Source of the DNA: Uncultured Candidatus Berkiella sp.
GTDB taxonomy: Bacteria; Pseudomonadota; Gammaproteobacteria; Berkiellales; Berkiellaceae
Length of the DNA stretch: 64,000 nucleotides
NCBI GenBank assembly: GCA_964594635.1
Contig: CAZQMV010000008.1
Coordinates: 59,813 to 123,812, forward strand
Direction: 5' to 3'
Position 1 is the stretch's first letter; each line of letters starts with the position of its first letter. The position numbers and the translations under genes were made by a program. The notes beneath the pieces were generated by a model, which was not told the DNA's origin, did not search any database, and saw only the letters and a list, made by a program, of their open reading frames with translations. This document shows, in pieces, positions 15,080-25,118 of the stretch.

Positions 15080-18013
15080 ATGGCATCGCAAACTGTCTCT
15101 AAAATGCTTAAAGATGCGCATGAGCTTCGCGAAAAAAAAGATCATCGCGGCGCAATCCAATTAATGAAGCGCTGTCTCGCTGAATACCCTGATGTTGCCG
15201 ATGCGCAATGTTTATGGGCATTGTTGCAGCTTGATATCAAAAATTATACCAATGCCGAAAAGTCTATTAACACTGCAATCGCTCTAAGCCCTTCACAAAG
15301 TGAATATTACTATATCTGTGGGCAGATCCATAAAACACAAAATCATTTTATGCCAGCAGAGAATGCATTTTTACAATGTATTAAATTAAATCCGCAACAT
15401 GAAAGAGCCTATTTTAATTTAGGCAGTCTCTATGAGAGGCAAAAGAAATATCCTGAAGCCATTCAGATGTTTAATCAGGTGCTGGAGCTTAATCCTAACA
15501 ATATTAAAGCACATTATAACTTAGGCGTGATTCATCATGTGCAAAATAAACTCACCGATGCGATTGTCAGTTATGAAAAGGGTTATACGCTCGCGCCTAA
15601 TGATTTGCCGCTGTTAAGTAATTTGGGAGCGGCATTAACCATGGATAGGCAGTTATTAAAATCCATACCCTATTATGAGCGCGCTTTAAACATATCGCCT
15701 GATTATATTCCCGCTATAACCAATTTAGCTGGTACGTATATGGAATTAAACGAAATGAAAAAAGCGGAAGTTTTATTGCGCCGCTCATTGAGTTTAAACC
15801 CACGATTGCCAACCAATTGGCGAAATCTGACTTTATGTCGTGATTATGAGTTGTTAAATGATCCCGATCTGATAAAAATTTTGGAGCTTATCGAAGAAAA
15901 AATATCGCCAGAAGATAAAATGCATTATGATTTTGCACTTGGTAAAATATATCATGATTGTCAAGATTATAAGCAAGCCTTTTCATATTATGAAAAAGGT
16001 AATCAGCAGCAAGCCTCTAAAGTATTCTTTAAACCTGAAGCATTTGCTAACCATATTCAGCAAATTATAAAACTTGATTCAACATTACCCAAAAATAGAT
16101 TTCAATTTTCAGAAGATAAAGAGCCACAACCCCTTATTCTTGTTGGAACATCACGCTCAGGAAAAAGCTTATTGGAATCGTTATTAGCTCAGAACCCAGA
16201 AATTGCGGCAAAGGGAGAAGTGGGGATTGCGAATTTAGTTGATACTATTCCACTTGAGCAGAGGCCAGAAGGAAGTTACCCCTATTGGTTAAGAAGTTTG
16301 ACCGAAATACAAGCCACTTTGTTGCGTGAATTGTACCTTAAACGGTTATTGCGAGATGGCACCGAGGAGGCACAATATCTCACTGACACGATGCCAGGAA
16401 ATTTTATGTATTTGGGATTACTTAAATCATTATTTCCCAAAGCAAAGTTTATTTATTGTCAACGTTCACCATTGGATACTTGCGTCTTGTTATATTTCAA
16501 ATATTTCATTCAAGGGCATGCCTATAGCTATGATATGAAAAATTTGGCTAGCTATTATCAGCAACAAGCGTTATTAATGCATTATTGGCAGTCAACGCTT
16601 TCTGATTCAATGATAACAGTGGATTATGAGAAATTAGTAACAGATCCTGAAAAAGAATTATTAACGATCAACCGTTTTCTAGGTCTATCAAAACATTTTG
16701 TTTTTAATTCTAGGTCAATTCGAGCAGATGAAGTAGGCATTTTTAAACACTATGCCAAGTTCTTCGAACCTATCACTCATTTGTTAAATGAATCTGTGGA
16801 TGTGGCAGAGAATCAAACAATCTCTAATGATACGTTTCGATTAAAAGAATTCATGGCCAAAGCGTATTATCACTTTAATTTAGGTGAGTATGGAGCTGCG
16901 CAAAGTTTATGTAAGACGATTTTAACAGAAGATCCAACATTCTATGCGGCTTTGCATCTATTAGGTGTGATTGCTTTTAAATTAAATGCGATTGAAGAAG
17001 CGATTGAAAAATTGCAACAAGCGTTGGCATTTTCACCACCGAATCCACAATTACATTTGGATTTAGGTGCGTGTTGGCAAAAGTTGGGCAAGCAAGTGCA
17101 AGCAGAAGAGCAATTTGATATTGCGAATGATCTCAAAAAATCTAAATCAACGCAATCAAAAGTACTGAGTGAGCAAATGAAAAATATTCTCCTTGGCGCA
17201 TTGAGTGAACCTTTTGAGGTAGTTGATGAATATGAACGTCAATTGCTGGTGAAAGGACAACTTGCTAAAGACAACATGCAAGAGCTTATGCTTTCTCAGC
17301 CAGTGCAAGACTCATCTGATTTAAGTATGGGTAATTACCGCGACATTCAAGCTTGGCACAACTATTATCAAACTATCGCTTTTGTTGATCATTTACTGAA
17401 ACAGCCGAAAAGGCAATTACACATTTTAGAAGTGGGATGCTCTGTGGGGCATTTTCATCAATTTCTTGAACACAATCTAAAGAATGAGGATAACAAACAG
17501 CTCTTATATTGGGGACTCGATCTTCGAGAAGATAAACTGAAAAATATGCTGCAAGGGGGAGTAAGTGCAATTGCTTCACTCTTTACCTTGCATGATCTGC
17601 AATTTGGATTGCCTTATCAAAATAATTTTTTTGACTATCTTGTCAGCTTTGACACGATCTCTTATTTGACAATAGAAGAGGGGCGATTATTGTTAGCCCA
17701 AATGTATCGAGTATTAAATGAAAATGGGCATTTGGTTATCGGAGCCAATTACGAAGCAGATTATCCAGGGTTTATGCAAAGTGTTCCTCTTTCTCAATTT
17801 GAAAAAATGCTTTATGAAAATGGTTTTGAAATCATCTTGCGACGCGCTAGAGTAGGATCACTGCATTCCTTGATCAATCATGTTTCCAAAGAACACATGC
17901 TTTTGGTGAATGACTTGTTAAAGGTGCATCCAGAAGAGATGGTTGCTGCGATGATTGCGCCGTTATATCCAAATGTGTCAGAGAGTGTCACTTTTCTATG
18001 CAAAGTAAGATAG
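15080..18013 (+). CDS. TPR-sulfotransferase-TPR-methyltransferase fusion protein
   Basis: About 7 N-terminal TPRs. Sulfotransferase segment with VGTSRSGKSLLESLL, TDTMPGNF, R.PLD.C and VDYEKLV. Then 2-3 more TPRs and a C-terminal ILEVGCSVG / YRVLNENG methyltransferase. Confidence 0.82.
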   Translation: MASQTVSKMLKDAHELREKKDHRGAIQLMKRCLAEYPDVADAQCLWALLQLDIKNYTNAEKSINTAIALSPSQSEYYYICGQIHKTQNHFMPAENAFLQCIKLNPQHERAYFNLGSLYERQKKYPEAIQMFNQVLELNPNNIKAHYNLGVIHHVQNKLTDAIVSYEKGYTLAPNDLPLLSNLGAALTMDRQLLKSIPYYERALNISPDYIPAITNLAGTYMELNEMKKAEVLLRRSLSLNPRLPTNWRNLTLCRDYELLNDPDLIKILELIEEKISPEDKMHYDFALGKIYHDCQDYKQAFSYYEKGNQQQASKVFFKPEAFANHIQQIIKLDSTLPKNRFQFSEDKEPQPLILVGTSRSGKSLLESLLAQNPEIAAKGEVGIANLVDTIPLEQRPEGSYPYWLRSLTEIQATLLRELYLKRLLRDGTEEAQYLTDTMPGNFMYLGLLKSLFPKAKFIYCQRSPLDTCVLLYFKYFIQGHAYSYDMKNLASYYQQQALLMHYWQSTLSDSMITVDYEKLVTDPEKELLTINRFLGLSKHFVFNSRSIRADEVGIFKHYAKFFEPITHLLNESVDVAENQTISNDTFRLKEFMAKAYYHFNLGEYGAAQSLCKTILTEDPTFYAALHLLGVIAFKLNAIEEAIEKLQQALAFSPPNPQLHLDLGACWQKLGKQVQAEEQFDIANDLKKSKSTQSKVLSEQMKNILLGALSEPFEVVDEYERQLLVKGQLAKDNMQELMLSQPVQDSSDLSMGNYRDIQAWHNYYQTIAFVDHLLKQPKRQLHILEVGCSVGHFHQFLEHNLKNEDNKQLLYWGLDLREDKLKNMLQGGVSAIASLFTLHDLQFGLPYQNNFFDYLVSFDTISYLTIEEGRLLLAQMYRVLNENGHLVIGANYEADYPGFMQSVPLSQFEKMLYENGFEIILRRARVGSLHSLINHVSKEHMLLVNDLLKVHPEEMVAAMIAPLYPNVSESVTFLCKVR

Positions 18014-19141
18014 AAGTCCCATTAACAATTTATCTAAAGCCCTTTCATCATGCGAAGGATTTAAAGCGATCCGTAATCTTGATTGTGAGGCGGGTACCGA
18101 AGGTGGTCTAATAGCACTGACACGAATGCCTTGTTTTGCTAATGCACGTTGCGCCATTACCGTATTCAACGGTGTTTGCAAAATAAGGGGTATGATATGG
18201 GTAGAGGAATTTCCAGTTTTGATCCCTTGCGCTTGAAGTCGTGTTCTTAATACATCTGCTGCTGTGAATACTTTTTTTGCCACATCTTGTAATGAAGGAA
18301 CAAGTTCCCATGCTGTTTGCATTATCGCTATTTGAACTGGAGAAGGGGCTGTGGAATAAATAAAACCATTGGCGCGATTAATTAGAAAACGCTTTAAGGG
18401 TTTGGCGCATGTCACATAAGCGCCTTGGCTACCAAGCGCTTTACTAAAGGTTCCCATGCTGACATCAATGTCGTCTCCATAGTCACTCGTCAAGCCATAT
18501 CCTTTGTTACCTAATAATCCCGTAGCATGGGCTTCGTCAACATACAATAATGCATCATATTGTTTTGCCAAGCGAATGAGAGTTGCTAAACATGCCATAT
18601 CGCCATCCATACCATACACTGATTCGGTTAAAATAAAGCGTGGTTGATTAAGGGATTTTGTTTTGGATAATTGCCAAGCTAAGTGATCATAATCAAGGTG
18701 GTGATAACGATATTGTTTAGCTCTCGCTAATTGGCAGCCTACATGCATGCTGGCGTGATTGAGTCTATCTGAAAAAACCAACGGAGCTGTACCAAGTGCT
18801 TTGCTATCTAATAATGCACTTAAGACGGAAATATTCGCTTGATAACCTGTGGCAAAAACTAATGCAGCATCCGCATTCTTATCAATCGCGATTTGTGCTT
18901 CTAAGTCGAAGATCTGTGATCGGCAGTTTGCCACTAAGCGTGATGTTTGAGCGCCGACGCCATAGGTATTTGCACTAACGGCCGCTGCCTTAATAAGTGC
19001 AGGGTGCTGGCTAAGACCTAAATAATCATTACTGGAAAAATCATAATCATATGATCGATAATGGGGTAGGTGTCTTAATAAATCCGACTGACGCAGATTT
19101 GCACAAAATTGCGTGTAAGGACGAAGTATCGTTTTATTCAT
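17996..19141 (-). CDS. bioF: 8-amino-7-oxononanoate synthase (PLP-dependent, AOS family)
   Basis: DFSSNDYLGL, TGYQAN, SDRLNHASM, TESVYGMDGD, VDEAHATG, GTFSKALG, AIRPPSVP. Confidence 0.88.
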   Translation of the reverse strand: MNKTILRPYTQFCANLRQSDLLRHLPHYRSYDYDFSSNDYLGLSQHPALIKAAAVSANTYGVGAQTSRLVANCRSQIFDLEAQIAIDKNADAALVFATGYQANISVLSALLDSKALGTAPLVFSDRLNHASMHVGCQLARAKQYRYHHLDYDHLAWQLSKTKSLNQPRFILTESVYGMDGDMACLATLIRLAKQYDALLYVDEAHATGLLGNKGYGLTSDYGDDIDVSMGTFSKALGSQGAYVTCAKPLKRFLINRANGFIYSTAPSPVQIAIMQTAWELVPSLQDVAKKVFTAADVLRTRLQAQGIKTGNSSTHIIPLILQTPLNTVMAQRALAKQGIRVSAIRPPSVPASQSRLRIALNPSHDERALDKLLMGLLSYFA

Positions 19142-19191: not shown

Positions 19192-20061
19192 TTAGCGAGA
19201 TGCAATTGCTAAATCACGACATTCCAGGGGTATTTCGATAATTTCCGGCCATTTTTCAATCCAGCCAGCATGATGTCCGGCATCAGACAGGATCTTCGCT
19301 TGGCAACAGCCAGGATTGTTTACTTTTTGCACAAATTGGTTGGATATCCAAGTTGGTACAATCGCATCTTTGCTTCCCGACCAATGTTGTTGTGGTAAGT
19401 GGTGTAGCTTCGATGCAACATCCATCGGATTCAACGATCCCGTTAAAGGGCTGGTATGGTGATGCTGATTCAGCGCCACATGATTCAAATCACCCGCCAC
19501 GGTGATCAAACCCACCACATCGTTCCGTTCACTGGCAATTAAGGCAGCAATACTCGCGCCTCCTGAAAAACCGATTAATAGAAATTTGGTATCACGTCTC
19601 TCTTTTATATGATCTAAGGTGACTTGAAAGGCTTGCACTACTTCTTTTGCATAACGATGACTTGACCAGTATTTAGGATTACAACTTGGGTCTAATGCAA
19701 GCGGCGTAAACTGACAAGGTCTGGCGACATAAATCACTTGCGGATGTTGATCGCGCAAGGCAAGCTGTAATGCAAGAGGTTGTTTGGGGGTTGGGTTATT
19801 TGAGAGTCGATGTTTTGTTTTCCAGCTGTTCCCATCGCCTTCTATATAGATATGACAGACAGGGGAAGGCCCTGTGTTTCGCTGATAGGTTGTGAGTGTG
19901 AAAGTCGATGTTGGATACCGGTATAAAGCGAATCCATTTTGTTCGGCTTGATTAACAACGTGTTGAGTTGCATCTGGAAGCATAGCAGAATGCTTGGTAC
20001 AACAACTCAGTGTACAAAACAGTAAAAACAAGATAAAGATAAGATGTCGATTTGCTAACAA
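19192..20061 (-). CDS. Lipoprotein alpha/beta hydrolase
   Basis: Lipobox-like LSCC after a hydrophobic stretch. HIYIEGDG, ARPCQF, LIGFSGG nucleophile elbow, DAIVP and a C-terminal AGH. Confidence 0.85.
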   Translation of the reverse strand: MLANRHLIFILFLLFCTLSCCTKHSAMLPDATQHVVNQAEQNGFALYRYPTSTFTLTTYQRNTGPSPVCHIYIEGDGNSWKTKHRLSNNPTPKQPLALQLALRDQHPQVIYVARPCQFTPLALDPSCNPKYWSSHRYAKEVVQAFQVTLDHIKERRDTKFLLIGFSGGASIAALIASERNDVVGLITVAGDLNHVALNQHHHTSPLTGSLNPMDVASKLHHLPQQHWSGSKDAIVPTWISNQFVQKVNNPGCCQAKILSDAGHHAGWIEKWPEIIEIPLECRDLAIASR

Positions 20062-20151
20062 GGCTTGAGACTCTGTCGTAAATCCTTATCATGACATAAA
20101 AGGATTTTTTTATGGTAGGATCGAGTAAAACGGGAACTGGAGAAAGGATAA

Positions 20152-21627
20152 ATGTCGTTGTTTAGGAAGAACACCCTTTTAGCGCTAGCACTAGCGAGCT
20201 TTTCCTCCATCAGCTGGGCAACATACTCGGATGTGAATGCGATGCTACAAGCATTGCGACCAAATGCTCCAGTTATTGCACCGCAACTTAACACGCTGAT
20301 TCTCTCACTCGATGGCTTAAATCCGTATCCCATCCAATATCGCGATGCGCTCTTTACTTTAGCGCCTGCAGCAGATGGTTCATTGCGAATGGTGTCAGAA
20401 ACCGCTAATCATGCCATGTATGCGACCATTTTTGATCGAGTTGAAAAGCTAAAATGTACTGAAGAGAAAACAGGGATTTCTTTTGGTGATCAACGCATTG
20501 CTTACAATCCCAAAGCATACTGGCAAAAAAACAAAGCAGCATCGACGACTGCTACCAGCACCACAACTAAAACAGCTACCACCGTAACCACAGACACGCC
20601 TGCAACGACTGTCAGTGATGATGTATTACCCGATCCAAAGGGCAAAGAAACCAAAGACAAGAATATCAATGTCTCAGACACATCAGACACATCAGACACT
20701 CCTGCGGTGGTGGATGTGGATACGCCTTTAATTGGTGATATTTTAAGCCAACCTAAGGGTGCCTGGATGCAAATCATAGGCGCTGATGTTTGGCAATATG
20801 AAAGACAAAATATACCCGGTTACCATGCGGATATGTTGGGTATGATTATTGGTCGCGATCATCAAATTAATGATGATTTATTTATTGGGATCGCCGGTGG
20901 TTATCAACAAGCCGATGTTGATACCAAAGGTTTATCGGGAAGCTATTTAGATGTGAAGCGCTATAACGCTACCGTATATGGTCGCTACGATTTCGATTTA
21001 GATTTCAAATGCTTACCCAAATTTCCCATGTTTGCACAATTAGGGCTGACACTCGCTTTAAATAACTTCGATAACAATCGCTATATTTTAGTGCCACCTG
21101 CTGCCGGTTTTGGTTATAGCAATATTGCGCATGGTGATTTTGATGGTTGGGAAACCAACGCGCATTTAGAGGTGGGTTATAACTTTGCTTGCCGATGCTT
21201 ACGCATTATTCCAAAAGCGATTATTGAATACTCGCACATGGAATTTAACAATTATGAAGAACATGATGCATTCTTCCTCGATTTAAATGTGAAATATGAC
21301 AACATGAATGCCTTTGATTTAGGCATTGGTGCACAAGTCGATTATCGCAGAGAGTTTGATAAAGTTGCTGTTATTCCAGAAGCGCATATTTACGTTTACC
21401 ACGACTTTATCAATGCGAATCAAGTTGCTACCGCCAACTTCTATAGTGGTGGGTGGGCATTCTTAAGCGAAGGGGCTACACCCAATTCGAATACCATGGA
21501 TTTTGGCGTTTCATTGAACGTTCATAGTAACAATCAAACCATGGTTAGAATTGAGTACGACTACGTAACCCGAAGTGATTATCGTCGTAATGAGGCGTTT
21601 ATCAAGCTACGACATGAGTGGGTATAA
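20152..21627 (+). CDS. Autotransporter beta-barrel protein with essentially no passenger domain
   Basis: Signal peptide ending SWA, helical linker, GISFGD, T/D-rich insert, then a barrel (GAWMQIIG, LFIGIAGGY, AHLEVGY, IIPKA, IPEAH..VYHDF) ending RHEWV. Confidence 0.85.
   Translation: MSLFRKNTLLALALASFSSISWATYSDVNAMLQALRPNAPVIAPQLNTLILSLDGLNPYPIQYRDALFTLAPAADGSLRMVSETANHAMYATIFDRVEKLKCTEEKTGISFGDQRIAYNPKAYWQKNKAASTTATSTTTKTATTVTTDTPATTVSDDVLPDPKGKETKDKNINVSDTSDTSDTPAVVDVDTPLIGDILSQPKGAWMQIIGADVWQYERQNIPGYHADMLGMIIGRDHQINDDLFIGIAGGYQQADVDTKGLSGSYLDVKRYNATVYGRYDFDLDFKCLPKFPMFAQLGLTLALNNFDNNRYILVPPAAGFGYSNIAHGDFDGWETNAHLEVGYNFACRCLRIIPKAIIEYSHMEFNNYEEHDAFFLDLNVKYDNMNAFDLGIGAQVDYRREFDKVAVIPEAHIYVYHDFINANQVATANFYSGGWAFLSEGATPNSNTMDFGVSLNVHSNNQTMVRIEYDYVTRSDYRRNEAFIKLRHEWV
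20674..20700 (+). repeat. 9-bp tandem repeat x3 (TCAGACAC[A/T]) encoding SDT-SDT-SDT
   Basis: tcagacaca tcagacaca tcagacact, inside the autotransporter insert. Confidence 0.85.
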
Positions 21628-21665
21628 AAAGGGATATTTGTAAACAAGGGACAAGAGTAGCGTAC

Positions 21666-24600
21666 ATGAAACAAGCATTTCGTCTTAGCCAAGCCGTTTT
21701 AGCCTCTACGCTGTTTATTGTACCGAGTATCAGCTGTGCCGATATCATCATTAACGGCGGCAACTCTGCGGCTAATATTGTTTATACCACTGGAGCGCCG
21801 GAAAATAACGGTAATATTCAAATTACCAATACCGGGTTTGTGGATACCACATTGCCAGGGGTTAACAACGGCGATGGTATTTTGGTTAATTCACAGAATG
21901 CCGTGATTACACTCGATCCCGCTAATATCAATGCAAACGCGATTTCAGCAGTCAATAACGGTATCACCATTACAGCGGGTAATAATGCCGCGATAACGGT
22001 TGGCAGTGGCACCACCAAAATTACGGCAACCAAAAGCGGTATTCAAGTTGATTCTAATACCGTTAATATTAATAACGCTGGTACCATTAATGGTGCGCCA
22101 GGTATCGAAGTCACTGCCAATGGTGCAACGTTCACCTTAGTTAACCAGGCAACAGGTTCTATTGGTATCGTACCCAATCAAGCGATAACGTTGAATGGCG
22201 CAGGCGCGAAGATCAATAACGCAGGTAGTATCGCAGGTTTAGGTGGTATTAACATTGGTGGCCAAAATGCAACCATTGTTAACCAAATTAGCACCAGCGC
22301 AATCACGGGTATCATATCGGGTACCACATTACCTGCTATCGCTGCGAATGCTACAGGTCTACAGTTAACCAACTCTGGCGTTATCCAAGGTACTGCTGCA
22401 GGTGGTGATGCCATTCAATTAAATCAGGATTTTAACGGTATCACGAATAATACGGGCGGTATTATCTCGTCTAATTTAAACAGTGGTATCAATATTACGG
22501 CTGGGATATCTGGTGATATTCAAAATAGTGGCATCATCGAAACGTCCGCCGTAGGCGGTTTAACCGCAGGTATTAGCATTGGTGGAAACTATATAGGCAC
22601 CATAAATAACAATGCAGGCGGTATCATCCAAACCTTAAGTGGTACTGGGAATGCAGATGCCATTGGTGTGACGGGTTCATTTGGCGTTATTAATAATAGC
22701 GGCAGTATTCTTGCCGTTGCAGGTGCTGGTAATGATAATGCGATTACGATTTTTCCAGGTTCAACAACCGGTATCATCAATAACAGCGGCAACATACTAA
22801 GCCAAAATAATTCAACCATTCTGTTAAATGGCAACATTACCCAAATTAATAATAATAGCGGTGGGACAATCGCTGCTTTAGGAAATGCTTCTGCCATTGT
22901 TGCTGACGCGGCTGGTGTTACATTGGTCAATGGGATCAACAACAGTGGCACAATTAGTAGTGGTGGTGGTCAAGCGATTGATTTACAAAGTGGTGGTGCT
23001 GCCATCAATATCAAATTGACCCAAACGGCTGGCACAATTGATGGCGATGTGTTGCTCGCTTCTGCTGGCGGTAACATTTTTGATATGAACGGCGGCACGA
23101 TAACAGGTAATGTTTTCACAAGCCCGTTGGCAAACAGCACGCTAAATTTAAATGGTGGCACGATCGCAGGTAATTTAACGCTGCAAAGTGCTGCAGGAAA
23201 TACCGTAAACATTGCAGGCACTGCCTTAAACACCGTTACCACTAGCCCTGGTGCCGATATCTTTAATTTAACTGGCGGTACTTTCAATACCATCACCGGT
23301 GGTGTGGGCGATATTTTAAATGTCAAAGCGACTTACAGCACGAGTGGCGACATCATTGATGTTCCCACTGTCAATGTGACAGCGGGTACGTTCAGTGTGA
23401 ATGATAAGCTAACAGGCTTTACCAATCTGAATGTTGGGCCCAATGCATCGATGGTGGTGAATTCAAATACCGTCACCGGTGTTCTTGCAAATGTGATCGT
23501 CAATGGTAATTCCTCTATATCTGTTACGAGTGGAAACCAATTAGATACGGGTGGCGGTGATATCACTTTAAATAACGGTGGTGTATTGAATCTGGCTAAT
23601 AGTGCAGTTCAAACAGGTGCTTTAGCGAATACCTTTACTGCCAATGCAGGTGGTGTTTACGGCGTGACAATCGAAGGGCCTGGTAATTTTGGCAAAATGG
23701 CATTAACGGGCAATGCAGATCTCAAAGCGGGTAGCTATATTGCGACACAACTAGGCACATCGGGTACTTTTATTCCAATGGGCACTCAGTTTGATATTAT
23801 TACGACGGCAGGAATGATAACAGATGCTTCAACACTGAATCAGCCTGGTTCATTAACGGTGTCTTTTGTTAAGTCACTCGAAGCGGGTGATACGATTTTA
23901 CGCTTAACATCACAACGAAGTGGTTATTCACCTTTTGCCAATAGTGACTCTTCACAAGGAGTTGCGGGTGCATTAGATGTGATTGCCGCTCAAGGGACAA
24001 CCAACCCTCAGCTGTTAGCGGTTTTAGGGCAATTGGATCTCATCACGAATCCATCTACGCTCCAAACGGAATTAGAAAGTCTAGCACCGCCTGTTAATTA
24101 TTCTCTGATTGCGGCAACCCATGTCAGCATGGATCAAATGTTTCGAAGCTTGCGTCGTCGTATCGAAGATATGCGTTACTTAAAAACGCTAGGTGCAGAA
24201 AGCTATCAAATCATTGGTCCAGATAACATGGAAGATCGCAATTCAGGTTCAGGCTATAGCTACGGTGATTCAATTCATGCCCCTGCTTCGCAAGGTGCAT
24301 GGGTACAAGGTTATGGCACGGTTCTTGATCAACGTCGTCGTCATCAAGTAGATGGCTACTTAGGAGATGCTACTGGTTTTGCTATCGGGATGGATTGGGG
24401 ACAACAAGGTGCCCTTGTCGGTGGAGCACTTAACTTTACACAAGCCCATATGGTGGGTAAGACAGAAGACGAGAATGTCCAAAATATTCAAAGTGTTCAA
24501 GGCTCTGTTTATAGCTGGATCGATCTCACAGATGATATCTACGTGGATACGATCGCAGGCTTTGCAATGCATCACTACAAAACACGCCGTAATATGGGCA

Positions 24601-25118
24601 TCGGTACATTTACAACCTCTGCGTTTGGTGACTTCTACGGTGTGCACTATGGCGTACAATCTGAAATTGGTTACGCATTCTTATTTGACTATCTCACCGT
24701 CTCTCCTATGACGCGCCTGCGTTATACTCGCATGTCAATTGATGATTATTCAGAGAGTGGTGCTGGCGGTGTGAGTTTAACGGTGCAAAACACGGGTTTG
24801 AACGAAGGCGTTGTTGGTGTTGGGATACGAGCACTTGGCAAAATAGAATATGCTCAAGCCATTTATGCTCCAGAGCTTTCATTCATGCTTGCTTATGATT
24901 TTTATGGTGAAGGCGAAAACACCACCTCACGTTTCTTAGGCGATGGACCGATGTTCCAAACGATTGGGATAAAACCTGCTCAAACAATGATGTTGATTGA
25001 TGCAGGCATCAATGTTCATACCTACGATTCTTATATCTTCACTGTCAAAGGTGAATTGGATCTACGCGATCATTTCTATGGCTACTCAGGTTGGGTGAAT
25101 CTATACCGCTCCTGGTAA
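21666..25118 (+). CDS. Autotransporter (type Va) with a G/N/T/I-rich beta-helical passenger
   Basis: Signal peptide from ATG 21666, repetitive INNSGxI passenger, GYSYGD, a barrel starting GAWVQGYG and a terminal W. Confidence 0.92.
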   Translation: MKQAFRLSQAVLASTLFIVPSISCADIIINGGNSAANIVYTTGAPENNGNIQITNTGFVDTTLPGVNNGDGILVNSQNAVITLDPANINANAISAVNNGITITAGNNAAITVGSGTTKITATKSGIQVDSNTVNINNAGTINGAPGIEVTANGATFTLVNQATGSIGIVPNQAITLNGAGAKINNAGSIAGLGGINIGGQNATIVNQISTSAITGIISGTTLPAIAANATGLQLTNSGVIQGTAAGGDAIQLNQDFNGITNNTGGIISSNLNSGINITAGISGDIQNSGIIETSAVGGLTAGISIGGNYIGTINNNAGGIIQTLSGTGNADAIGVTGSFGVINNSGSILAVAGAGNDNAITIFPGSTTGIINNSGNILSQNNSTILLNGNITQINNNSGGTIAALGNASAIVADAAGVTLVNGINNSGTISSGGGQAIDLQSGGAAINIKLTQTAGTIDGDVLLASAGGNIFDMNGGTITGNVFTSPLANSTLNLNGGTIAGNLTLQSAAGNTVNIAGTALNTVTTSPGADIFNLTGGTFNTITGGVGDILNVKATYSTSGDIIDVPTVNVTAGTFSVNDKLTGFTNLNVGPNASMVVNSNTVTGVLANVIVNGNSSISVTSGNQLDTGGGDITLNNGGVLNLANSAVQTGALANTFTANAGGVYGVTIEGPGNFGKMALTGNADLKAGSYIATQLGTSGTFIPMGTQFDIITTAGMITDASTLNQPGSLTVSFVKSLEAGDTILRLTSQRSGYSPFANSDSSQGVAGALDVIAAQGTTNPQLLAVLGQLDLITNPSTLQTELESLAPPVNYSLIAATHVSMDQMFRSLRRRIEDMRYLKTLGAESYQIIGPDNMEDRNSGSGYSYGDSIHAPASQGAWVQGYGTVLDQRRRHQVDGYLGDATGFAIGMDWGQQGALVGGALNFTQAHMVGKTEDENVQNIQSVQGSVYSWIDLTDDIYVDTIAGFAMHHYKTRRNMGIGTFTTSAFGDFYGVHYGVQSEIGYAFLFDYLTVSPMTRLRYTRMSIDDYSESGAGGVSLTVQNTGLNEGVVGVGIRALGKIEYAQAIYAPELSFMLAYDFYGEGENTTSRFLGDGPMFQTIGIKPAQTMMLIDAGINVHTYDSYIFTVKGELDLRDHFYGYSGWVNLYRSW

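Follow-up and report, generated by a model that had tools for sequence, protein, structure and literature searches.

A short type Va autotransporter with no apparent passenger, encoded directly upstream of a full-length autotransporter in Candidatus Berkiella and its relatives

We analyzed a stretch of 64,000 nucleotides (nt) from an uncultured Candidatus Berkiella sp. (contig CAZQMV010000008.1, positions 59,813 to 123,812), here called the window. Berkiella-like bacteria are obligate intracellular organisms of amoebae. At positions 20152 to 21627 of the window lies a gene for a short type Va autotransporter, and directly downstream lies a gene for a full-length type Va autotransporter, which we refer to as its partner (Table 1). 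An original prediction, drawn from the letters of the window, held that the short protein is an autotransporter reduced to linker and barrel, with a low-complexity insert between the two. We found that the short protein consists, in order, of a signal peptide, a helical module of 90 amino acids (aa), a disordered insert of 90 aa, and a 12-strand type Va barrel.

On inspection, the signal peptide appears to be of the Sec type, with a basic n-region and a hydrophobic core. Its position is kept in the alignment of orthologs, and it coincides with a hydrophobic helix at residues 6 to 16 of the AlphaFold model. At the other end of the protein, PF03797 matches residues 204 to 470 with its full model (1 to 255 of 255; Pfam), and the autotransporter barrel model TIGR01414 matches as well (E = 3e-21; NCBIfam). 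Outside the barrel, we found no Pfam or NCBIfam domain. The protein ends in ...FIKLRHEWV; across the family the penultimate tryptophan is invariant and the last residue is valine or alanine, and the partner ends in ...LYRSW. We rejected a two-partner secretion pore (TpsB/Omp85), since PF03797 was the only match, there was no POTRA or Omp85 match, and the structural neighbors are 12-stranded. A peptidoglycan tether of the OmpA/Pal type was rejected too, since Pfam and NCBIfam gave no peptidoglycan-binding domain and the part outside the barrel is a helical module plus a disordered segment. The gated pore and the envelope tether that had been suggested as roles thus found no specific support, the N-terminal part having neither a peptidoglycan-binding domain nor any other domain in those two databases. 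A plausible ribosome-binding site was found for the short gene, and the promoter-like sites around it are no more numerous than expected from shuffled sequence. Within the family, a 7-aa insertion in the barrel (...DLDFKCLPKF..., aa 282 to 288, approximately 20995 to 21015) is seen only in the window protein and its closest relatives (P0002 and P0003); according to the model, it falls in the periplasmic turn between strands 4 and 5.

We found that the N-terminal module of the short protein is related to the pre-barrel linker of the partner. BLASTP aligned aa 44 to 101 with partner residues 797 to 853 (29% identity, E = 0.02). Using hhalign, we compared a profile built from the short-form N-domains of 18 orthologs only with an alignment of six partner proteins. 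This gave a single match, at pre-barrel residues 766 to 837 (numbered from the ATG at 21666), with a probability of 87% and an E value of 4e-6; the next match had an E value of 0.71. A joint alignment of short and long forms is collinear over the whole 90 aa, beginning at the first mature residue, and it pairs GISFGD of the short protein with GYSYGD of the partner, as originally predicted. Nine of its positions are invariant in both forms (L9, L30, L44, L47, P49, R73, G85, G89, and D90), and in the partner alignment G863, G867, and D868 of the GxxxGD motif are invariant. The AlphaFold model of the window protein places the helices of the module at residues 28 to 35, 39 to 42, 44 to 54, 60 to 70, and 77 to 100.

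Because the module homologous to the partner's linker starts at T24, no residues remain for a passenger. The original prediction had also set linker homology right after the signal peptide but had begun it at P44; the module is therefore slightly larger than was thought. We found no true passenger fold in the N-terminal region, and natural forms of 395 to 405 aa hold nothing besides the linker module and the barrel, so the description "linker plus barrel only" stands. Judged by its sequence, the short protein amounts to an autotransporter's bare transport unit, with a signal peptide, a linker module, a barrel, and zero passenger. By homology and spacing, the helix at aa 77 to 100 would be the pore ("plug") helix. 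In the window protein this candidate linker helix stands about 100 aa away from strand 1, and in insert-less orthologs it adjoins strand 1.

The insert of the window protein, 90 aa between GD113 and G203, contains 19 Thr, 11 Asp, 9 Lys, 8 Ala, 7 Pro, and 7 Ser residues. It matches the Thr/Asp/Lys-rich segment of about 90 aa with three SDT units that had been described, and the SDT units are encoded by a 9-bp repeat present 2.9 times. This tandem repeat would fit an insert that grows by replication slippage. Among 36 aligned short forms, the spacer between the GD and strand 1 takes nearly every length from 6 to 168 aa, and the length variation of the short family stems almost wholly from it. 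Natural short spacers measure 6 aa (P0041), 11 aa (P0066), and 12 aa (P0019), and in P0030 only 7 residues lead from the long helix to strand 1. The pooled spacers are 18% Thr, 15% Lys, 15% Ala, 9% Asp, 8% Glu, 7% Ser, and 7% Pro, with Arg, Gly, Cys, and aromatic residues almost absent; Thr reaches 35% in one insert (P0023). The inserts contain 8 to 25% Lys plus Arg and are charge balanced, whereas the 735-aa passenger of the partner contains 1.5% Lys plus Arg and 4.2% Asp plus Glu.

We found that the flanks of the insertion point are conserved, with GxxxGD before it and (D)LSKAxxIxGxW after it. The inserts of two orthologs with 69% identity (P0019 and P0024) differ in length by about 150 aa, and the helix and the GxxxGD and DLSK motifs are unaltered between them. 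The GD of the partner, like that of two unrelated mid-size autotransporters (P0069 and P0070), lies 5 to 9 aa ahead of strand 1. Since this distance is so short in full autotransporters, the insert sits at a point where the lead into strand 1 is normally tight.

Whether pairs of a passenger-less and a full autotransporter are conserved in relatives was a question raised with the original prediction. We found that a short gene is followed directly, on the same strand, by a long one (1,084 to 1,209 aa) in 20 of 20 distinct loci. These comprise the window and the fetched loci with enough flank, after removal of duplicates of the same contig or sequence, and their short forms are about 40 to 80% identical to that of the window. 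The gaps between short and long genes measure 1 to about 50 nt, or else the mechanically called open reading frames (ORFs) overlap. In the window, 38 nt without a terminator-like site separate the short stop codon from the ATG of the partner at 21666. In seven distinct loci, all from more distant relatives, the third gene is another long autotransporter (L008, L010, L012, L013, L015, L017, and L018; L009 holds the same proteins as L010 and was not counted apart). The window and its closest relatives have one long gene only, followed by a 4HBT thioesterase gene on the opposite strand, and we found no further copy of the short or the long form in the 64-kb window. A hidden Markov model (HMM) of the short form scored short forms at 570 to 760 bits and long forms at 140 to 200 bits. 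This clean separation implies that the split between the two forms is older than the divergence of these lineages. The passenger of the partner (21741 to 23945, 735 aa) has 11 Lys plus Arg and 31 Asp plus Glu residues and many short repeats of the N-N-x-G-x-I type; it matched no Pfam family.

About 45 orthologs of the short protein, of 374 to 578 aa and down to about 31% identity, were found in Candidatus Berkiella and related uncultured Gammaproteobacteria, and in these the signal peptide, module, barrel, and C-terminal motif are intact. A first protein search gave 19 relatives of 405 to 541 aa, all of them short forms and one named from a Candidatus Berkiella metagenome-assembled genome (MAG); more short forms came from a protein search that used a wider alignment. 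When the module profile was compared with 1.84 billion representative proteins, only 34 matched at E ≤ 1e-3. About 20 of these were short (374 to 578 aa), with the module at about aa 25 to 120, and the remainder were long forms (mostly 1,028 to 1,153 aa) or fragments, with the module at about aa 660 to 870, just ahead of the barrel. As the search profile held one long-form row, the long-form matches arise partly by construction, and the hhalign comparison is the independent evidence linking short and long forms. A scan of one genome per GTDB species gave 13 loci, all in MAGs labeled Candidatus Berkiella or unclassified Gammaproteobacteria or Proteobacteria. Berkiella forms an order of its own, Berkiellales, in the NCBI taxonomy. 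The short family is thus confined to a family-to-order-level clade, Candidatus Berkiella and its relatives.

The module and the barrel are, by codon comparisons, under strong purifying selection. Against the closest ortholog for which DNA was available (L020), the ratio of nonsynonymous to synonymous substitution rates (dN/dS) was 0.064 in the module, 0.060 in the barrel, and 0.17 in the insert, which also had 43 gapped columns. Across comparisons the insert gave 0.17 to 0.5, and more distant pairs keep the same ranking, with dS saturated. The idea that the gene is a degenerate pseudogene or a miscalled ORF can be dismissed almost completely: the missing passenger is the one thing in its favor, and against it stand the intact parts and conservation in some 45 orthologs, the dN/dS of about 0.06 in module and barrel, and a plausible ribosome-binding site and promoter-like site.

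We compared AlphaFold models of the window protein and of an insert-less ortholog, P0019. The window model, made from 18 sequences, had a mean predicted local distance difference test score (pLDDT) of 61.5 and a predicted template modeling score (pTM) of 0.61; pLDDT fell to about 30 over aa 103 to 200, and the barrel begins at 203. The P0019 model, made from 36 sequences, was better (pLDDT 83.5, pTM 0.82), with a module pLDDT of 86 to 91 and values below 50 only in the 24 residues ahead of strand 1. Its strand map gives 12 strands plus a hairpin in loop 5. With Foldseek, the top matches of both models were all type Va barrels, namely, EstA, AaaA, EspP, Hbp, NalP, BrkA, and AIDA-I; for the window model the best was EstA (E = 5e-13), and the solved barrels ranged from 5e-13 to 1e-8. 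The P0019 model aligned with full-length EstA, AaaA, and pre-cleavage EspP over 335 to 381 columns, compared with about 292 to 310 for the window model. Since the P0019 barrel is 283 aa, its alignments reach into the linker. This is what would be expected if the model helix sits at the pore-helix position of the solved structures, and it supports that placement indirectly. Sequence searches of the PDB with the whole protein, the family profile, and the C-terminal 400 aa of the partner gave only a marginal match to the AaaA barrel (E = 5e-7, with the profile) and none for the linker module; by sequence, then, the position of the helix has no anchor in a solved structure. By BLASTP, the short barrel is 23% identical to that of the partner (E = 8e-19).

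We also found an unusual pattern of conservation in the barrel. The extracellular loops score 0.70 to 0.76, on par with the strands, and the periplasmic turns are lowest, at 0.42 to 0.54. This runs opposite to what is generally expected of outer-membrane proteins and agrees with a cap seated on the outer side of the barrel.

Upstream of the short gene, in the opposite direction, lies a gene for a lipoprotein α/β-hydrolase, with the lipobox cysteine in 12 of the 12 N termini inspected. Its family matches are weak (FSH1, esterase EstD, and polyhydroxyalkanoate [PHA] depolymerase), and we rejected an identity as a BioH-like esterase because of the lipoprotein signal in the 12 orthologs inspected. 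An envelope lipoprotein hydrolase beside the pair could reflect a functional link or inherited synteny. On the same strand and 3' of the hydrolase, a gene of the BioF/Kbl family is kept in most loci; as its TIGR00858 score is under the cutoff, it need not be the BioF of biotin synthesis. Beyond it lies a gene for a fusion of tetratricopeptide repeats (TPR), a sulfotransferase domain, and a methyltransferase domain, an arrangement kept in four loci of the Berkiella clade (L001, L005, L006, and L020). A glycan or surface-modification cluster (epimerase/dehydratase, family 2 glycosyltransferase [GT2], and the TPR-sulfotransferase fusion) adjoins the gene of a Thr-rich envelope protein. In one Berkiella MAG (L005, 1236 to 2747), a Fic-domain gene lies between the glycosyltransferase and TPR-sulfotransferase genes; the window has none there. 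Antisense ORFs of 90 to 120 aa lie opposite both autotransporter genes (20055 to 20333 and 20502 to 20777 on the minus strand and several opposite 21618 to 25118), and the one opposite the Thr-rich insert reads as rich in Val, Ser, and Thr. We set these aside as mechanical by-products of composition.

Table 1. Features of the short/long autotransporter locus and its surroundings (window coordinates unless a locus is named)
Feature	Position	Strand	Basis and remarks
Short type Va autotransporter gene, without apparent passenger	20152-21627	+	491 aa; stop codon included; PF03797 E 7e-44
Signal peptide, aa 1-23	20152-20220	+	Probable cleavage between SWA and TY (MSLFRKNTLLALALASFSSISWA followed by TY); by sequence inspection
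N-terminal helical linker module, aa 24-113, ending in GISFGD	20221-20490	+	hhalign to partner, collinear alignment, model helices, dN/dS 0.064
Long helix, aa 77-100, candidate α-linker (pore-spanning) helix	20380-20451	+	AlphaFold pLDDT 74-78; aligns with partner ...MFRSLRRRIEDMR; pore position inferred
Hypervariable disordered low-complexity insert, aa 114-202	20491-20757	+	pLDDT about 30; between invariant GD and strand 1
Perfect tandem repeat, 9 bp x 2.9, coding SDTSDTSDT, inside insert	20674-20699	+	Repeat analysis
12-strand autotransporter β-barrel, aa 203-491	20758-21624	+	PF03797; Foldseek; strand map from insert-less model
Sigma-70-like promoter match, TTGAGA-16-TATCAT	20065-20092	+	10/12; in 90-nt divergent intergenic region 5' of short gene; consensus match only
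Partner, full-length type Va autotransporter	21666-25118	+	1,150 aa; probable start ATG 21666 (MKQAFRL..., own signal peptide); mechanical ORF from GTG 21618
Partner pre-barrel linker module, through GYSYGD	23961-24269	+	hhalign 766-837; joint alignment
Partner β-barrel	24294-25115	+	PF03797 E 2.5e-37
Second long autotransporters	L008 7341-9980; L010 10736-13327; L012 7601-10573; L013 8209-10854; L015 10910-13582; L017 10931-13549; L018 10885-13470		
Lipoprotein α/β-hydrolase, divergent from short gene	19192-20061	-	Directly 5' of short gene in every locus examined; weak family matches
Hydrolase orthologs	L002 2592-3443; L009 225-1061; L018 4991-5830		
BioF/Kbl-family pyridoxal phosphate (PLP)-dependent acyltransferase	17996-19141	-	TIGR00858 bioF 375 bits, below 426 cutoff
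Fusion of TPR repeats, sulfotransferase domain, and C-terminal methyltransferase domain	15080-18013	+	977 aa; 3' of epimerase/dehydratase and GT2 glycosyltransferase genes

The linker helix of solved type Va structures descends the pore and meets strand 1 at the periplasmic rim (PMC3419190). If that helix stays in the pore, an insert that follows the linker and precedes strand 1 would be periplasmic. We propose that the long helix at aa 77 to 100 would fill the pore of its own barrel, as in canonical autotransporters, and that the four short helices of aa 24 to 70 would pack as a small cap onto the extracellular side, which is conserved. Beginning and ending at the periplasmic rim, the insert would be a flexible periplasmic loop, which could lengthen and shorten by slippage because no passenger needs threading. 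The original prediction treated a periplasmic location of this segment as established. We would call it favored: the tight junction that the insert occupies, the unaltered helix and flanking motifs, the insert-less P0019 model, the conserved outer loops, and the charge balance all point to it, and we judge this topology to be moderately likely. The charge balance bears on it in that acidic residues are reported to be critical when a disordered segment is autotransported, and natural passengers to be mostly acidic (PMC4174580).

As for function, the short protein would be made together with the downstream autotransporter or autotransporters and would serve them as an accessory outer-membrane subunit. 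The likeliest mode may be that the paralogous barrels and their linker caps associate side by side, which would affect assembly, stability, or anchoring. Four observations constrain the function: selection on both module and barrel is strong, the outer face is conserved, a passenger is lacking, and the short gene invariably comes first in an operon-like unit whose one or two full-length paralogs have the clade-specific linker module in common with it. An accessory subunit is the most economical reading of these. The helper barrel or hetero-oligomer of the original prediction fits the invariant, operon-like pairing of the genes. We hold the accessory role with less confidence than the topology. 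The short protein itself is unlikely to be an adhesin. A bare transport unit with a periplasmic loop, acting as an accessory subunit, is our best explanation taken whole, and we think that it has about an even chance of being right.

Several points weigh against this explanation. The hairpin model accepted for type Va secretion, with export from the C to the N terminus, puts the segment adjacent to strand 1 into the pore first, so that the insert and the module would end up outside (PMC6555100). Disordered passengers are exported efficiently (PMC4174580), and Thr-rich tracts resemble surface stalks. The placement of the helix in the pore draws on homology, spacing, confidence values, and alignment lengths, and AlphaFold may merely echo the canonical autotransporter arrangement. 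With regard to the pairing, tandem autotransporter genes also come about by simple duplication. Because the hydrolase and BioF-like genes are equally syntenic in the clade, adjacency alone is weak evidence. The short barrel, only 23% identical to that of its partner, is about 30% identical to some unrelated mid-size autotransporters. Finally, the sequence was present only in DNA metagenome runs and in zero RNA runs.

The hairpin model and the nature of the insert lead to the best of the alternatives, in which the insert is threaded out and the short protein is a mini-adhesin, with the helical module at the tip of a flexible and possibly glycosylated stalk, a tiny autotransporter like TcfA or TynE of Bordetella. 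EspP exports disordered segments of more than 200 aa (PMC4174580), tiny autotransporters with proline-rich low-complexity passengers exist (PMC3419190), and the inserts are Thr rich and hypervariable, as surface stalks often are. The conserved (D)LSKAxxIxG directly ahead of strand 1 could then be the segment in the pore. However, the low-complexity region is C-terminal to the linker helix here and N-terminal in TcfA and TynE. We also found that the helix and GxxxGD are equally conserved with a spacer of 6 aa and one of 168 aa, which is hard to square with a move of both from the pore to solvent. The inserts are 15% Lys and charge balanced, compared with 1.5% Lys plus Arg in the passenger of the partner, and the barrel's extracellular loops show conservation, not variability. 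We therefore regard an exported stalk as unlikely, though deserving of serious attention.

A bolder version of the accessory role would make the short protein a trans-acting component of type V secretion, needed as a hetero-oligomeric partner or assembly primer for the long autotransporter or autotransporters to be secreted or anchored. The disordered periplasmic loop might contribute by, for example, recruiting chaperones or the β-barrel assembly machinery (BAM) or by spacing the complex. If true, this would be a two-component form of "auto"-transport. We consider it improbable.

Improbable too is an N terminus that lies entirely in the periplasm, with the barrel as an anchor or pore and the module acting on a leash, for example, by binding the linker or barrel of the partner during assembly. 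There is no folding of a passenger to drive export, the length of a leash is free to vary, the homology of the module to the partner's linker would allow it to compete or pair with that linker, and the two genes are coupled in an operon-like manner. In contrast, the insert-less forms show the canonical spacing of helix and strand 1, AlphaFold models the insert-less form with confidence, and the structural alignments of that model with EstA, AaaA, and EspP extend to the linker. A wholly periplasmic N terminus would also leave the conserved extracellular face unexplained.

Finally, the short protein might be an independent leftover, a tandem duplicate minus its passenger that now serves as a generic outer-membrane protein, with adjacency as inherited synteny and the insert as neutral slippage. 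Tandem autotransporter copies do occur in the same loci, the flanking hydrolase and BioF-like genes are just as syntenic, and the insert contains a tandem repeat. But the N-terminal module, which would be of no use to a generic porin, is selected as strongly as the barrel; the short gene is kept in every locus examined, down to about 31 to 45% identity, while the downstream genes vary; and the gaps between short and long genes are very tight or overlapping. We consider this the poorest of the readings that call for discussion, with little chance of being correct.

In the literature found, with subscription journals outside the coverage, neither natural passenger-less classical autotransporters nor conserved short/long pairs were described, and the wording "lacking a passenger domain" was found only for inverse autotransporters. 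By term search, autotransporters are not mentioned in the paper that compares the genomes of the two named Berkiella species (PMC9803151). Autotransporters are defined by carrying their own cargo, and a selected, cargo-less family ahead of cargo-bearing paralogs raises the question of whether barrels act for one another.

As far as its sequence allows us to say, the short protein is related to the type Va autotransporters but lacks one defining feature, the passenger. Like the translocators of EstA (3KVN), AaaA (9OQA), EspP, Hbp, NalP, BrkA, and AIDA-I (4MEE), it has the 12-strand fold, a preceding helix that corresponds in position to the α-linker, and a Sec signal peptide. Those proteins carry a passenger N-terminal to the linker, and the short protein has none. 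It also has 90 aa (6 to 168 aa across the family) separating the linker from strand 1; in the partner and the other full autotransporters compared, 5 to 9 aa follow the GD.

Similar in size are the tiny autotransporters of Bordetella. In a survey of 1,523 autotransporters, TynE (491 aa), with a short proline-rich passenger, was among the smallest (Celik et al. 2012, PMC3419190). TynE and TcfA resemble the short protein in size and in having a low-complexity region N-terminal to the barrel. Their proline-rich region, however, is described as a passenger (PMC3419190) and by the type Va order lies N-terminal to the linker, whereas the low-complexity region of the short family lies C-terminal to it and is rich in Thr, Lys, Ala, and Asp instead of proline. 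Unlike TynE and TcfA, the short family includes forms of 395 to 405 aa without any low-complexity region, and in the part of PMC3419190 available no conserved pairing with a full autotransporter is described for the Bordetella proteins.

In domain content, the short protein matches the engineered transport units (linker plus β-core) of surface-display and mechanistic studies, linker and barrel being the smallest unit able to assemble; the role of the α-linker is discussed in the same survey (PMC3419190). Those units are laboratory truncations, and the short gene is natural, selected, and genetically coupled to full-length paralogs. The natural series of spacers, 6 to 168 aa long, would lend itself to testing how the nascent barrel captures the linker, an unresolved step of type V secretion. 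In gene order, the locus resembles the type Vb and Slam-type helper barrels, in which a barrel gene lies directly beside, and in the same orientation as, the gene of a large surface protein. Unlike those helpers, the short protein has the 12-strand PF03797 fold and lacks POTRA and TPR domains as well as an Omp85 or DUF560 barrel, and its neighbor owns a barrel of its own.

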